Shown piece by piece: positions 12,713 through 21,907 of a stretch of 64,000 nt of DNA. Position 1 is the stretch's first letter. The number at the start of each line of letters is the position of its first letter. The notes below the pieces were generated by a model. That model was not told the DNA's origin and did not search any database. It saw nothing but the letters and a program-made list of their open reading frames with translations. The position numbers and the translations under genes were made by a program. This DNA comes from Promethearchaeota archaeon (GTDB taxonomy: Archaea; Asgardarchaeota; Lokiarchaeia; Sigyniarchaeales; SOKP01), in contig JAHLWS010000075.1 of assembly GCA_019057795.1 (NCBI GenBank), positions 1 to 64,000 of the forward strand, written 5' to 3'.

Positions 12713-12756
12713 ATTATGACAGTAGCACTATTGTTTGGAATTTAAAAAGCCGTAAA
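12713..12756 (+). repeat. Orphan copy of the 3' end of the plsY-kinase genes (direct repeat)
   Basis: ATTATGACAGTAGCACTATTGTTTGG is identical at 12713, 19621 and 21021; 41/44 match to 19621-19664, followed by a T-tract. Confidence 0.9.
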
Positions 12757-12836
12757 GTCTTTTTTTTTTCTTTTTTATTAAATTTTTTACCTAATCGTTC
12801 CAAAAGATCAAATGCGATGAAGAGAGTACGAGTTGT

Positions 12837-16558: not shown

Positions 16559-18301
16559 TTGATAGATTTTAAAAACAGGTTATATAAAATTATTGAGATT
16601 TTTACTATCAAAAATGTTAGTTACTTATCAGTAGTCTTAAATTTAGCTAGTATTATTTTAGGAATAATTTACCTAGTAAAACCTTTATATTCTTTTTTAT
16701 GGGATGTTTTTGGGATTATTTTATTAATAAGTCTATTTGTCAATCTTTTACTTGTATATCTTAATTTGGATAAAATAAATAATGCGAATAGATTAGGAAA
16801 AAGAACGAGCTTACTTTGTTATTTTTATTTAGTTTTTGTGATTTTTGCTATGCTAAGTTTGATGTCAGGTAATTTATCCACTTCTATAACATATTCAAAT
16901 GAAATAATTGAAAACTTTGGAGCGTATTTAACAACCTATTTTTCTTATTTTGGGATTTTAATTTATGGCATTTTTATAGGATTAATTGATATTAAAAACA
17001 TCAAAAACAAAAATTTTTGGGAATTCAAAAAAAGGTTTGAAGGAAATAAATCTAAAGAAATTATTAGAGCTAAAGAAATATTGTATAAAATTTTTACGAT
17101 TCTTACGCGGGTGATTTTTATTATTGGTATTATTTTTGCGATTAATGTATTATTTGGTGTATTTGAAATAATAACAACTGGTATCGTTTTATTTACACCT
17201 CAATTTGGAACATTCTTTTCATTTATATTTTTGGCAAATACGATTATATATTTAAAATTAAAAAAGAAAAAATGGAATCCTAAAAAATATTATAGAACAG
17301 CAATTATTGGAATTCTAATTTCTGGGATTTCTATGACGCCTTTTTTTTTAAATCATTCCATAGTAATAAATGCTGAGAATAAGTTTTTAGATATGTTTGG
17401 TCAAGATTGGCGGGAACAAATCCCCGTTGAAGTAAATAGTTATTTTTTACAAACAACTTTTTCAATTCCAGGTTATTTTTTAGGAATTCCTCCTAAAAGC
17501 AGTATTATTGAAGAACAAACTTTATTCTATAAAGGCGAAGGAATAAACCTATACTTTGATGCTTACATGCCACTAAATCGAGGGAAAAACCTTCCTGGAG
17601 AAAATTCAACCATTATTAGGATCCATGGTGGTGGGTGGGTTTCGGGGGATAAAGGACATATGAACATGATGCAGATGAATAAATATTTTGCAGCTCAAGG
17701 ATACATAGTATTTGACATACAATACGGATTATTTGACGGAACGATGCCTTTTGTTGATCCTAATACACCCGATTATAATAAGGGAGATTTCAATATCGAT
17801 GATATGATGCGTCATCTCGGCATTTTCACTATTTTTCTCGCTGAACACGCAGATGAATACGGAGCTAAATTAGACTCTGTATTTATTAGTGGAGGATCTT
17901 CTGGAGGCCACCTTGCATCTGCTATGGCTTTAGCAATAGCAAGCAGAAAATATACGGATATTTTTAGTCAAAATTTAACAATAAAAGGTTTAATCCCATT
18001 CTATCCCGCAAATGGTCAAATGGTTTATTTTGGAATTGATGGAAAAGAAGAATTTAAAAACCCTGAAAAGCTTATTGAAGAAGATAGTCCACCGTGTTTA
18101 ATTTTCCAAGGTACCCATGATATTCTTAATTATTTTAGTATAACAAATAATTTTAGAAATACCTATTTATCTGAAGGAAATTATGAATGTGCTATATTAT
18201 GGATGTTATTAGGTGGACACGCAAGCGATTTTTATTTTTCAGGTTATTATAACCAGATTTTTTTGTATTATATGGAGCGATTTTTGTATTTTTATCATTA
18301 A
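16559..18301 (+). CDS. Multi-TM membrane-anchored alpha/beta hydrolase (esterase/lipase)
   Basis: About 7 N-terminal TMs; HGGGW oxyanion motif, GGSSGG nucleophile elbow, D (GTHD) and H (GGHA). Confidence 0.85.
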   Translation: MIDFKNRLYKIIEIFTIKNVSYLSVVLNLASIILGIIYLVKPLYSFLWDVFGIILLISLFVNLLLVYLNLDKINNANRLGKRTSLLCYFYLVFVIFAMLSLMSGNLSTSITYSNEIIENFGAYLTTYFSYFGILIYGIFIGLIDIKNIKNKNFWEFKKRFEGNKSKEIIRAKEILYKIFTILTRVIFIIGIIFAINVLFGVFEIITTGIVLFTPQFGTFFSFIFLANTIIYLKLKKKKWNPKKYYRTAIIGILISGISMTPFFLNHSIVINAENKFLDMFGQDWREQIPVEVNSYFLQTTFSIPGYFLGIPPKSSIIEEQTLFYKGEGINLYFDAYMPLNRGKNLPGENSTIIRIHGGGWVSGDKGHMNMMQMNKYFAAQGYIVFDIQYGLFDGTMPFVDPNTPDYNKGDFNIDDMMRHLGIFTIFLAEHADEYGAKLDSVFISGGSSGGHLASAMALAIASRKYTDIFSQNLTIKGLIPFYPANGQMVYFGIDGKEEFKNPEKLIEEDSPPCLIFQGTHDILNYFSITNNFRNTYLSEGNYECAILWMLLGGHASDFYFSGYYNQIFLYYMERFLYFYH

Positions 18302-18444
18302 TTCTTAGTTTTTGGTTTGGTTAAAATTTAAATAAAATTGAAAATAAGATCAATAGTCACAGAGACTGTGAATTATCAAACCAAAAATAATTTTTAATAT
18401 TATTTACATAGGAATAAGATTTTTATTAAAGAGAGGGAGATTTT

Positions 18445-19653
18445 ATGGAGATTTTTGCAATCACAATAAATATTTTAGTTATAGTTATAGGCTATTTTAT
18501 AGGTTCATTAAATCCGGCTTATTTTTTTGGTAGATTAAAAAAATTCGATATAAGAGATAAAGGCGATGGTATTGCTGGCACTGTAAGTGCTTATCGTCAT
18601 TTAGGACTTAAATTTGCAATACCAACAGCGCTATTTGATACTCTAAAAGGTGTTTTTGCTATTTTCATAGCACTGAGTATGGGAGCTGATTTTGTCTTCG
18701 CGCAATTAAGTGGTTTAGCTGCTATTGCGGGACATGTTTTTCCATTTTATATTAAATTTCGCGGTGGTCAAGGAATGGCTTGTACTTCAGGTATCGTACT
18801 TGCTTATTTATTAAATTATATTCTTGTTGGTCCCGAAATGCTTATTTTTCTTTTTTGCTATTTAATTTTTATAATTGTGATTTTTGTTTACATTACTAAA
18901 ACAGGAGTAATTATCGCGCTCATTGTACTTGCTTTAATCGGATATACTGCTCTTATTTATTATCCTGAAAGCCCTTATAATATCTTCTTTTGGATAGTAA
19001 TAACTTATGATATGTCTGTTACTTTTTATGATATGGTAAAAGGGAAGGTATTCAAGATTGAAGACGAAACTTTTAAAGCTCACTGGTGGCGGGTAGCCAT
19101 GAGACCGTTTGCGATTTTATTTATAATATTTTACGTATTTTACCCGCAAATAACTACATTGCAATTTATTGGTATCGTAGCGCTATTTTTTATAGTATTT
19201 GATATTTATAGGTTTATGAGTAAACAAGCAAATGAATTAATAACATCAAAAGTTAAAGCTCTATTAAGGAAAAGCGAATTTAAAAAATTTTCGTCGATGA
19301 CTATCTTCTTAGTTGCGATGTTTATAACTATATTGTTATTTCAGAAAGATATAGCGATTATAGCCTCAACGTTTCTGATATTCGGAGATTCGTTTGGTAA
19401 GCTTTTTGGGTTAGCTTTTGGAAGGCATAAAATATTGGACAAAACTTTAGAAGGTACGCTAGCATATGCGGGAAGTGTCCTTATTATGGGATACATACTC
19501 TATACTAACTTAGAGATTTCTTTGGTTGTTTTAATTCTAGGGTGTATCTCAGCACCTTTAGTTGAAATGTTTTCAATGAAAGTAAATGACAATTTTACAG
19601 TTCCTTTAATAACGGGATCAATTATGACAGTAGCACTATTGTTTGGCCTATAA
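18445..19653 (+). CDS. plsY: PlsY-like acyltransferase fused to CTP-dependent lipid kinase (dolichol/phytol/DGK1-type), copy 1
   Basis: GYFIGS.NP...DIR..G..AGT, D.LKG, GHVFP...FRGGQG; C-terminal GD..GKLFG..FGRHK...KTLEG...E.....DN..VP. Confidence 0.8.
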   Translation: MEIFAITINILVIVIGYFIGSLNPAYFFGRLKKFDIRDKGDGIAGTVSAYRHLGLKFAIPTALFDTLKGVFAIFIALSMGADFVFAQLSGLAAIAGHVFPFYIKFRGGQGMACTSGIVLAYLLNYILVGPEMLIFLFCYLIFIIVIFVYITKTGVIIALIVLALIGYTALIYYPESPYNIFFWIVITYDMSVTFYDMVKGKVFKIEDETFKAHWWRVAMRPFAILFIIFYVFYPQITTLQFIGIVALFFIVFDIYRFMSKQANELITSKVKALLRKSEFKKFSSMTIFLVAMFITILLFQKDIAIIASTFLIFGDSFGKLFGLAFGRHKILDKTLEGTLAYAGSVLIMGYILYTNLEISLVVLILGCISAPLVEMFSMKVNDNFTVPLITGSIMTVALLFGL

Positions 19654-19847
19654 AAAGCCGTAAAAATTCTATTCTTTTTTTTTTTTTCATTTTTTTTTAT
19701 CATACTTAACAACGTAATTTTTCTATGATTTTGATACAACTAAAGTTTAAATATCACTAAATACAAGATAAATATGGATTAAAATGTAAATATTCATGCG
19801 TTATAAAAAAGCCAACAGAAGAAAAGTATCAAACATGAGGATGAGAA

Positions 19848-21053
19848 ATGGAACCCTTAGAAATTATGATTAGCGTATTATGCTTATTTTTTGGCTATTT
19901 TTTTGGTAGTATTAATCCTGGCTATTTTTTTGGGAGACTGAAAAAAATCGATATAAGGGAAGTTGGTTCTAAAAACGCAGGAACAACAAATACATTTCAG
20001 ACGTTAGGGGTGAAATATGGGATCCCCACGGCCATATTTGATATTTTTAAAGGGTTGTTAGTTATTCTAATAGCGTTAAGCTTAGGAACTAACATTGTTG
20101 TGGCTCATTTAAGTGGATTGATGACAATCGTAGGTCACATATTTCCATTCTATTTAAAGTTTAGAGGCGGCCAGGGTGTTGCTGCTGCTACAGGAATACT
20201 TCTTTACTATTTAGTGAATTATTTAATAACCAACCTGGAATTTATCTTCTTTCTATTTTATTTAATTCTTCTTTCAGTAATATTTTATTATATTTCTAGA
20301 ATTGGTACGCTTTTAAGTATTGTAGTGCTTCCCCTTCTTGGCTATTCTATTTACATTTATTTCCCGGATTGTCAATATAACGTCTTTTTTTGGGTTGTAA
20401 TTACCCATATTACTACGATTGGTATTTATAATATCTTGAAAGAAGGTAAATTTAAGATAGAAGACACGGATTTTCAGACATATTGGTGGCGTGTTGCGAT
20501 AAGACCATTTGCGATTATTTTTTTAATATCTTATATTGTTTTCACTAAAGTTCCTTCTTTATTTATACTTGGTAGTGTGACTTTAGCTTTGGTAGTCTTT
20601 GATATCTTTAGATTGATGCATAAAAAAACAAACGAGGTATTGAAGACAAAAGTTAAGGCTTTACTTAGGAAAAATGAAATTAAAACATTTTCGTCATTCA
20701 CCATCTTTTTCGTTGCCTTGTTTCTTACGTTATTGATATTTCCGAAAGAAGTAGCATTCATTGCATCATCCTTTTTAATCTACGGTGATATATTTGGAAA
20801 GCTTTTCGGTTTAGCATTTGGGAGACATAAAATATTGAATAAGACATTAGAAGGAACATTAGCATATTTTGGGAGCGTTCTTATTATGGGATATGTACTC
20901 TATACTAGTTTAAGTATTCCATTGATTGTTTTAATTATAGGTGGCATCTCAGCACCTTTAGTTGAGATGTTTTCAATGAATCTAAATGATAATCTTACAG
21001 TTCCTTTAATAACGGGATCAATTATGACAGTAGCACTATTGTTTGGTTTATAA
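19848..21053 (+). CDS. plsY: PlsY-like acyltransferase fused to CTP-dependent lipid kinase, copy 2
   Basis: DIREVGSKNAGTTN, DIFKG, GHIFP...FRGGQGVA; same kinase C-terminus; tandem paralog of copy 1. Confidence 0.85.
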   Translation: MEPLEIMISVLCLFFGYFFGSINPGYFFGRLKKIDIREVGSKNAGTTNTFQTLGVKYGIPTAIFDIFKGLLVILIALSLGTNIVVAHLSGLMTIVGHIFPFYLKFRGGQGVAAATGILLYYLVNYLITNLEFIFFLFYLILLSVIFYYISRIGTLLSIVVLPLLGYSIYIYFPDCQYNVFFWVVITHITTIGIYNILKEGKFKIEDTDFQTYWWRVAIRPFAIIFLISYIVFTKVPSLFILGSVTLALVVFDIFRLMHKKTNEVLKTKVKALLRKNEIKTFSSFTIFFVALFLTLLIFPKEVAFIASSFLIYGDIFGKLFGLAFGRHKILNKTLEGTLAYFGSVLIMGYVLYTSLSIPLIVLIIGGISAPLVEMFSMNLNDNLTVPLITGSIMTVALLFGL

Positions 21054-21121: not shown

Positions 21122-21907
21122 ATGTCTTATATTGAGAAAAAGTATAACAATCAGATCTCAGAAGTTTTTGACGACCTCACTAAATTGGAACAAGATATCC
21201 TAAATTTACTTAATTATAAATCCATTAAATATTCTGAAAAGGTCGCAAAATTATGCGCTCTTAGTAACAAAAACATTAATCTCATCCTAAAGAAATATTA
21301 CCCCGAAATTAAAAGAATTGACGATAAGTTAAAGATTAAGTCAAGATTGAAGTTTTATTACGACTTACTAGATAAATTGACCAACTTTATTAGGAGCGTT
21401 GAGGAATTTCAAAAAATTGACGATGAATATTACGATACTATTATTGACTTCATTAACGAGAAAGAAAATTTAATATCAGGTAAATATAAAGGAATTAGTT
21501 CTATCGAGTTAACGGTGTTTTACGACAAGAAAACTCGTGAAGATTTAGAGCGAGTTTTAGCGGAAAAAATCGAAATGGGGAGTAAACAATTCTTTACTTT
21601 CGGATCCTTAGAAACAGAAATTAAAAAAATAGCCAGAATTGCTGGAGCAGATGAGGTGGCGATCCTTAACAATGAAGAAATGCTAAAAAGGGCGGAGTTT
21701 ATTAGTAATCCAAGAGCTATTATTCATTACTCTGTTTATTCTACAGATGAGGAATTGTTGAAAGAAATCGGGAGAGAATTAAAAGAGTATCTTATTTCCA
21801 AGGGTTATGAAGCTGTGATCCTACTTCTAGAAATTACCGATCTTACACTGGAGCAAGAATTTTTAACTGGTTCGATCATTACTAACGCTAATTTAAATCC
21901 TGATTAA
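21122..21907 (+). CDS. Hypothetical protein
   Basis: 261-aa ORF, no recognised motif. Confidence 0.7.
   Translation: MSYIEKKYNNQISEVFDDLTKLEQDILNLLNYKSIKYSEKVAKLCALSNKNINLILKKYYPEIKRIDDKLKIKSRLKFYYDLLDKLTNFIRSVEEFQKIDDEYYDTIIDFINEKENLISGKYKGISSIELTVFYDKKTREDLERVLAEKIEMGSKQFFTFGSLETEIKKIARIAGADEVAILNNEEMLKRAEFISNPRAIIHYSVYSTDEELLKEIGRELKEYLISKGYEAVILLLEITDLTLEQEFLTGSIITNANLNPD

Follow-up and report, generated by a model that had tools for sequence, protein, structure and literature searches.

Does this lokiarchaeon carry a bacterial-type module for making ester or hybrid lipids, or do its PlsY-like genes serve another purpose? The question is raised by two tandem genes in the first 64,000 nucleotides of contig JAHLWS010000075.1 of a Promethearchaeota archaeon (the window), each encoding a PlsY-like domain followed by a domain of the SEC59/DGK1/VTE5 type; an earlier note had proposed that they form such a module with an upstream membrane esterase. 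We propose, at a probability of roughly 45%, that the fusion is a one-protein enzyme of fatty-acid salvage or lipid remodelling, whose kinase domain would make acyl-phosphate and whose PlsY half would pass the acyl chain to a non-phosphorylated acceptor. The two genes are:

18445..19653, + strand: copy 1 of the fusion, 402 aa, PlsY-like over about residues 1-203, then the SEC59/DGK1/VTE5-type domain
19848..21053, + strand: copy 2 of the fusion, 401 aa, with a two-domain architecture like that of copy 1

Domains and residues of the fusion

Both genes encode true fusions of a PlsY fold with a SEC59/DGK1/VTE5-type domain, as the earlier note had read them. The N-terminal halves match PF02660 (E 6e-30 for copy 1, 2e-35 for copy 2) and, by sequence too, the PlsY of A. 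aeolicus, and the structure model of this half has the seven-helix PlsY fold, aligning with 5xj7 at Z 13.5 and a root-mean-square deviation (rmsd) of 3.4 over 176 residues. Scores against the equivalog model TIGR00023 (87.1 and 110.1 bits) both lie under its cut-off of 137.2 bits. The isolated C-half gave no Pfam match, 19 of 42 C-halves of the family match PF01148 (best E 1.7e-7), and its relatives are stand-alone proteins named SEC59/DGK1/VTE5, dolichol kinase or diacylglycerol/polyprenol kinase (E 1e-13 to 1e-10). The best solved folds for its model (pLDDT 94.8) are CdsA (Z 10.5, rmsd 7.5 over 176 residues) and CarS (Z 7.6, rmsd 3.1 over 99), which have only the fold in common with it, at 15-17% identity; the named matches and the DN ending are of the kinase type. 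Identity between the two copies is 60% overall, with 52% for the N-halves and 69% for the C-halves. We regard the fusion as a real and undescribed two-domain family whose chemistry appears to be altered in both halves; a literature search, which covers subscription journals poorly and is not proof of novelty, found no paper on a PlsY-kinase fusion.

In the A. aeolicus PlsY structures, the donor site is formed by His92, the backbone of residues 104-107, Thr41 and Asn37, with His92, Gly102, Gly105 and Asn37 assigned to acyl-phosphate binding and the oxyanion, while glycerol-3-phosphate (G3P) is held by Ser35, Arg45, Lys104, Asn180, Ser142 and His177 (PMC5700162). Single mutants at R45, K104, H177 or N180 keep 0.03-25% of the activity (N180D 3%), and T41A keeps 5%, the Thr41 hydroxyl being important for donor binding (PMC5700162). 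In our alignment of 91 fusion rows, where positions S35 to N180 follow the A. aeolicus numbering, the donor side is largely kept: His92 is present in 91/91, Gly102 and Gly105 are invariant, and Asn37 and Asn42 are found in 79/91 and 90/91. The G3P side is eroded. Lys104 is replaced by Gln in 66 of the 91 rows, the Arg45 position varies among Lys, Arg and His, that of Ser142 is mostly Gly, Pro or Ala, and His is absent from the common residues at position 177; position 104 is Lys or Arg again in more distant members. The change from GGKG to GGQG, to which the earlier note had drawn attention, is seen in both copies and in family rows including those of bacteria, and thus characterises this section of the family.

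Both copies have the acyl-phosphate hole (His92 and G102-G103-x-G105). Neither has the complete G3P phosphate clamp S35/R45/K104/N180, which reads D/R/Q/D in copy 1 and S/Q/Q/N in copy 2, with N180 placed by the probable register given below. Copy 1 keeps His97 and GGxG, and carries S35 to D, N37 to I, T41 to V, N42 to S, K104 to Q and S142 to A, and in that same register H177 to T and N180 to D; its motif 1 reads GDGIAGTVS, so the N-x-G-x-T-N motif is lost, as first noticed. Copy 2 keeps S35, N37, H92, T41, N42, S142 and probably N180 (Asn195), having both Asn37 and Thr41 where copy 1 has Ile and Val, and lacks both cationic clamp residues (R45 to Q, K104 to Q) and probably H177 (Gly192).

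Motif 3 of PlsY probably falls at residues 192-195 of copy 2, a register based on hydropathy and on the NxxNI pattern of sister proteins, at low hhalign confidence. The last PlsY helix of copy 2 is hydrophobic over 179-197, with His187 in mid-helix at a position that is Tyr in most bacterial members; Asn195-Ile196 corresponds to the Asn-Ile of HxxNI, for which the sister proteins, a clade without the kinase domain, have NxxNI, with Asn at both 192 and 195 (copy 2 numbering) in 38/38. His187 is thus probably not the motif-3 His, and probably neither copy has His177. The earlier note saw no obvious motif-3 His in copy 1, with which this agrees; in copy 2, His187 probably lies mid-membrane and the best register gives Gly192. 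The published mutant data and this residue pattern together make efficient acylation of G3P unlikely and binding of acyl-phosphate plausible.

The C-halves keep the conserved Arg, DxxR, Glu, GD, KTxEG and DN of the kinase family, and copy 2 has R215, R219, D314, K318, KTLEG at 332-336 and DN at 381-382. The RKxxH motif is replaced by RVAxR or RxxxR: the His position, with which R219 of copy 2 aligns, is Arg or Lys in 42/42 fused rows and His in 99% of 100 stand-alone relatives, a taxonomically narrow set. Besides, the Ala four residues past the catalytic Asp, invariant in the stand-alone proteins, is mostly Lys or Glu in the fusions. That the replacement by Arg is conserved suggests that the site is live but takes another substrate, probably an anionic one. 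In Dgk1, R76 and D177 are required for activity (PMC3486869). No solved SEC59/DGK1 kinase structure was among the fold-search matches, so that Arg219 is only predicted to lie in the active site. By their motifs, the catalytic Arg and Asp of the fusion (R215 and D314 in copy 2) are the presumed equivalents of Dgk1 R76 and D177. With a retained donor site, an eroded G3P pocket and an altered kinase motif, the pattern favours the changed specificity that the earlier note had listed as an option.

Copy 1 is chimeric: trees built for each domain place its N-half with the single-copy genes of other Lokiarchaeia (100/99) and its C-half with copy 2 (100/98). The synonymous distance between the copies is unsaturated in the C-half only, where a stretch near the end is 92% identical. 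The kinase half thus appears to have been exchanged or homogenised between the copies while the PlsY halves were kept distinct, which fits two acceptors served by one donor-making domain.

Source of the acyl-phosphate

No PlsX, Dak2 or DegV was found in the source genome (100% complete, 7.5% contaminated); eight other lokiarchaeal genomes gave no Dak2 or DegV, and the three of them searched for PlsX gave none. The source genome has PlsC-like genes, CarS, a glycerol-1-phosphate dehydrogenase (G1PDH)-like candidate, six CDP-alcohol transferases, 16 AMP-binding ligases and several stand-alone SEC59/DGK1/VTE5-family kinases; it gave no match of GpsA strength, and its best GlpK-like match was under the cut-off. 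By inspection, a stand-alone RKxxH-type kinase in G000 (C73:148378-151435) lies directly upstream of genes resembling geranylgeranyl reductase and geranylgeranylglyceryl phosphate (GGGP) synthase, and is likely a prenol or archaeol salvage kinase.

A separate canonical PlsY occurs in 27 of the 36 non-lokiarchaeal fusion hosts and PlsX in 26, so that the fusion would be an accessory enzyme there. No PlsX, Fak, PlsC, GpsA, GlpK, CdsA or CDP-alcohol transferase was found in two hosts of the candidate phyla radiation (CPR), G181 and G183 (one from Berkelbacteria, the other a Nealsonbacteria genome complete at 0.64 Mb), from which we argue that the reaction may be self-contained. PlsY-like genes are rare in Patescibacteria (12/301), where three stand-alone ones lie behind fak genes and two are the fusion without Fak.

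Nested in the fusion family (100/99) is the clade of 38 proteins without the kinase, of about 200 aa and from Aminicenantes where named, in which Asn37, Asn42, His92 and Asn180 are invariant, as are Asp35 and Asn177. Fatty-acid kinase genes lie directly upstream and co-oriented in 5 of 10 informative loci of this clade, which are spread over its two branches and show two different gene architectures:

L131 (2222-5237) and L135: DegV-Dak2 fusion upstream of the kinase-less gene
L138 and L144: fakA plus fakB upstream of the kinase-less gene
L143: DegV remnant upstream of the kinase-less gene

The other five informative loci have no upstream fatty-acid kinase genes, and none of the 80 fusion loci has fakA/fakB-type genes. 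We also observed fusions of about 1000 aa joining a divergent PlsY-like domain to PPDK_N and a phosphoenolpyruvate (PEP)-utiliser mobile domain (L160:3260-6334, - strand; L161:3890-6946, + strand; L162:3680-6616, + strand), in one CPR genome and two genomes of the sister lokiarchaeal family; His92 is missing from the protein of L160. Three unrelated phosphotransferases, of the SEC59/DGK1/VTE5, Fak and dikinase types, thus accompany PlsY-like domains. The earlier idea that the fused kinase supplies a phosphorylated donor or acceptor is plausible for the donor, made in bypass of PlsX and Fak, given the lack of PlsX, Dak2 and DegV matches in the genome and the kinase-less relatives behind fakA/fakB; a glycerol-phosphate acceptor is disfavoured by the loss of the acceptor-phosphate clamp.

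Proposed reaction and alternatives

We hypothesize that the C-terminal CTP-type kinase domain would phosphorylate a free fatty acid with CTP, and that the labile acyl-phosphate would be passed within the membrane to the PlsY-like domain, which would transfer the chain not to G3P but to an acceptor that has no phosphate beside its attacking group; this acceptor could be a lipid or polyol hydroxyl, a sugar or possibly an amine. Copies 1 and 2, which share the kinase type and differ in the acceptor pocket, would probably acylate different acceptors. Both activities, both substrates and the channelling are what we infer from the architecture, residues, distribution and neighbours observed. A more specific proposal, tentative and less likely than not, is that a SEC59/DGK1/VTE5 domain was re-tuned to phosphorylate fatty acids with CTP inside the membrane. 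It would add a third source of acyl-phosphate to PlsX and FakAB, with channelling to a PlsY derivative whose acceptor is new.

Several points weigh against salvage through acyl-phosphate. We know of no SEC59/DGK1/VTE5 enzyme that phosphorylates a carboxylate, all characterised ones using lipid alcohols. Thr41, with its donor-binding hydroxyl, is poorly conserved in the family, and the stand-alone set behind the kinase comparison is narrow. The association with fak genes represents one evolutionary event, such genes also flank canonical plsY (G186), and Fak domains occur in 12-14 of the 36 non-lokiarchaeal fusion hosts; the association is a lead, not proof, and supports the use of acyl-phosphate more firmly than it does the substrate of the kinase.

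The fusion could instead hold an ordinary lipid-alcohol kinase working in series, the PlsY half acylating a neutral glycerol lipid and the kinase phosphorylating the product, a salvaged mono/diacyl- or alkyl-glycerol, or a prenol. This agrees with the known chemistry of Dgk1, Sec59 and VTE5 and with the presumed equivalents of Dgk1 R76/D177, a neutral acceptor would suit the eroded clamp, and PlsX could supply the donor in the 26 hosts that have it. We nevertheless consider it unlikely, as it leaves unexplained both the acyl-phosphate source in lokiarchaeal and CPR hosts and the family-wide change from His to Arg; in addition, the CPR hosts show no phosphatidate-using enzyme, and the source genome already has several stand-alone kinases of the family. 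The loss of most G3P residues, and often of Thr41, would also be compatible with a PlsY half that is no longer an acyltransferase and binds a lipid or lipid-phosphate, presenting it to the kinase or regulating the kinase, since the phosphate hole is largely built from backbone and could persist as a binding site. That 38 kinase-less proteins still have the domain, with Asn37, Asn42, His92 and Asn180 invariant and often behind a fatty-acid kinase, and that dN/dS (nonsynonymous over synonymous rates) is 0.07-0.14 between species, makes such a module improbable.

A working acyltransferase for G3P or glycerol-1-phosphate (G1P), making bacterial-type or hybrid phospholipids de novo in the source archaeon, is very improbable. 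The PlsY fold, the PlsC-like genes, the acceptance of G1P by bacterial PlsY (PMC13400652) and the S35, S142 and probable N180 of copy 2 are in its favour, but copy 2 lacks R45, K104 and probably H177, and two positions of the clamp are Asp in copy 1, N180D leaving 3% activity. It also sits poorly with the separate canonical PlsY of 27/36 non-lokiarchaeal hosts, the absence of the fusion from many 98-100% complete genomes of the lokiarchaeal family, and the GpsA and GlpK results. Just as little weight falls on copy 1 as a pseudo-enzyme in a heteromer with copy 2, or as a copy decaying beside it. Copy 1 alone of 129 rows lacks Asn42 (a unique change to Ser) and also lacks Asn37, and its N-half has a dN/dS of 0.71 against the closest orthologue, with just 6 synonymous changes, on a longer branch; a recent relaxation of copy 1 in the source strain is possible. 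On the other hand, a copy-1-type gene is the only match in G113, G190 and G191, and N-halves of this type show dN/dS of 0.07-0.09 over longer distances, that is, purifying selection between species. As copy 1 differs in its PlsY half, shares a copy-2-type kinase half and belongs to a type that occurs alone elsewhere, the obligate active/pseudo-enzyme pair of the earlier note is unlikely; moreover, PlsY is a monomer (PMC5700162), and the tandems of relatives hold 2-4 copies of other types.

Distribution, locus and biological meaning

One search returned 411 proteins at E <= 0.001, in many 50%-identity clusters of about 330-430 aa, and the named hosts include Aminicenantes, WOR-3, Latescibacterota, KSB1, Thermotogae, Spirochaetes, Actinomycetota, CPR groups and one member of the Thermoplasmatota; no relative was found on viral contigs. 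Among 151 Asgard genomes searched, full-length matches were confined to the lokiarchaeal family of the source genome, in which 24 of 61 genomes carry the fusion, several 98-100% complete ones gave none, and tandem arrays of 2-4 copies are common. A wide Asgard range, suggested by records labelled Hod-, Odin-, Thor- and Hermodarchaeota, was rejected: most of these have the lokiarchaeal gene order and nest among lokiarchaeal sequences, and the taxonomy search gives one family. In the trees (a quick one of 120 rows and smaller careful ones), the lokiarchaeal fusions form one group (SH-aLRT 98) nested amid bacterial ones, beside Latescibacterota- and WOR-3-labelled proteins, for which a single transfer from bacteria would be the simplest reading. 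The family is widespread in bacteria, as the earlier note had considered, and no known unrelated role was found for it. All complete PlsY-like open reading frames (ORFs) found in the source family were of fusion length. Stand-alone PlsY proteins that are unrelated to the fusion and have no damaged motif occur in some other Asgard families; those of L020-L023, L029 and L030 have every G3P residue. We also observed a reversed domain order (P0228 and its cluster) and a shorter form of 330-350 aa without about two PlsY helices (P0184, P0199, P0203 (L145) and P0193), L145 looking archaeal (DPANN-like) by its tRNA synthetases.

The remaining features of the locus are as follows:

16559..18301, + strand: membrane-anchored esterase gene of the hormone-sensitive lipase (HSL) type, 580 aa, from the ORF map
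19654..19700, + strand: T-rich tract 3' of copy 1, likely an archaeal terminator
21122..21907, + strand: 261-aa protein without a family match
12713..12788, + strand: 76-bp remnant, 83% identical to the 3' end of copy 1 and its T-tract

The ORF map agrees with the earlier note on the positions and common + strand of the esterase and fusion genes. The T-rich tract and the 194-bp spacer between the copies suggest that they need not share one transcript; a sigma-70 promoter scan, its bacterial consensus ill-suited to an archaeal host, gave chance-level results. The 261-aa ORF had no match in Pfam or Atlas. The 76-bp remnant, inside an upstream defence-like island of the window, may be the scar of a lost copy, a rearrangement or an integration. 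In G000 (C9:11291-11583), a 295-bp internal fragment 93% identical to copy 2 lies amid TIR-like and other defence-like ORFs, and is either a remnant or sequence from a related strain.

The esterase has HGGG (356), GxSxG (445-449), Asp521 and His554, thus an intact triad, and about five N-terminal membrane helices, in agreement with the multi-helix lipase described earlier. In 13 lokiarchaeal loci it lies within 6 kb of the fusion: the two genes are neighbours in 4 of these, and a TFB gene separates them in 9. None of the non-lokiarchaeal fusion loci has it. Of 12 genomes with a close esterase orthologue, 11 carry the fusion, on a different contig in 7 of those 11, and 13 of the 24 fusion genomes have no such orthologue. 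The esterase could supply fatty acids; it is a syntenic neighbour in part of the lokiarchaeal family and no required partner, so the three-gene lipid module was not upheld. The constant lokiarchaeal context is TFB - fusion - 261-aa ORF - proS, the 261-aa ORF and proS being the most constant neighbours (29 loci); this ORF was not seen in bacterial loci. By inspection, the fusion lies directly upstream of gap-pgk-tpi-secG in Aminicenantes-like hosts (L071-L081, L089, L105 (several) and L106), and in Nealsonbacteria it lies among glycolytic genes.

With A. aeolicus PlsY (PDB 5XJ5-5XJ9; PMC5700162) the fusion shares the seven-helix fold, His92, the GGxG phosphate hole and usually Asn37 and Asn42; it differs in the family-wide erosion of the G3P clamp and 2-hydroxyl residues, in scoring under the TIGR00023 cut-off, in the attached kinase, and in forming a long-branched clade of its own, present alongside canonical PlsY. 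The CTP-dependent SEC59/DGK1/VTE5 lipid kinases (COG0170) share its sequence family, CdsA/CarS-type fold and the R, DxxR, E, GD, KTxEG and DN residues, whereas the fusion has RxxxR for RKxxH, mostly Lys or Glu for Ala, and the PlsY-like domain. FakA/FakB, which feed PlsY in Firmicutes (PMC10848957) and flank the kinase-less clade, would do an equal job, turning fatty acid into acyl-phosphate without PlsX, but they are of unrelated fold, soluble, ATP-dependent and of two components. These comparisons extend to E. coli by functional analogy only. There, Aas, an acyl-acyl carrier protein (acyl-ACP) synthetase/2-acyl-glycerophosphoethanolamine (2-acyl-GPE) acyltransferase, activates fatty acid and re-acylates lipid in one membrane protein, not homologous to the fusion and with a different activated intermediate.

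Asgard PlsY homologues have been reported as bacterial transfers of unresolved function, and the 'lokiarchaeal PlsY' of these reports probably includes this fusion (PMC6431249, PMC6737245, PMC9385802); the bacterial origin agrees with ours, and the accessible text of these sources treats the protein as PlsY and is silent on both the fused kinase and the loss of the G3P pocket. Lokiarchaeal PlsY has also been cited as hinting that Asgards have lipids of the bacterial type (PMC13400652). That argument is weakened by the gene of the source family, which is a dispensable acquisition from bacteria and no ordinary PlsY. Attention shifts to other Asgard families, whose intact stand-alone PlsY proteins appear to be better candidates for real G3P acylation. 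The relevance to eukaryogenesis seen in the earlier note is not borne out for a widespread bacterial family gained by one lokiarchaeal family and missing from many near-complete genomes there; the fusion probably serves fatty-acid salvage, has weak bearing on eukaryogenesis and is probably no indication that eukaryotic ancestors built membranes in the bacterial way. Overall, the fusion allows new enzymology, possibly a fatty-acid kinase that uses CTP, to be tested in one protein, and is relevant to the handling of fatty acids by lipid-auxotrophic CPR bacteria. If the proposal is true, Lokiarchaeia could attach fatty-acyl chains to lipids or surface molecules of their own, and minimal CPR bacteria could remodel scavenged lipids with one protein.

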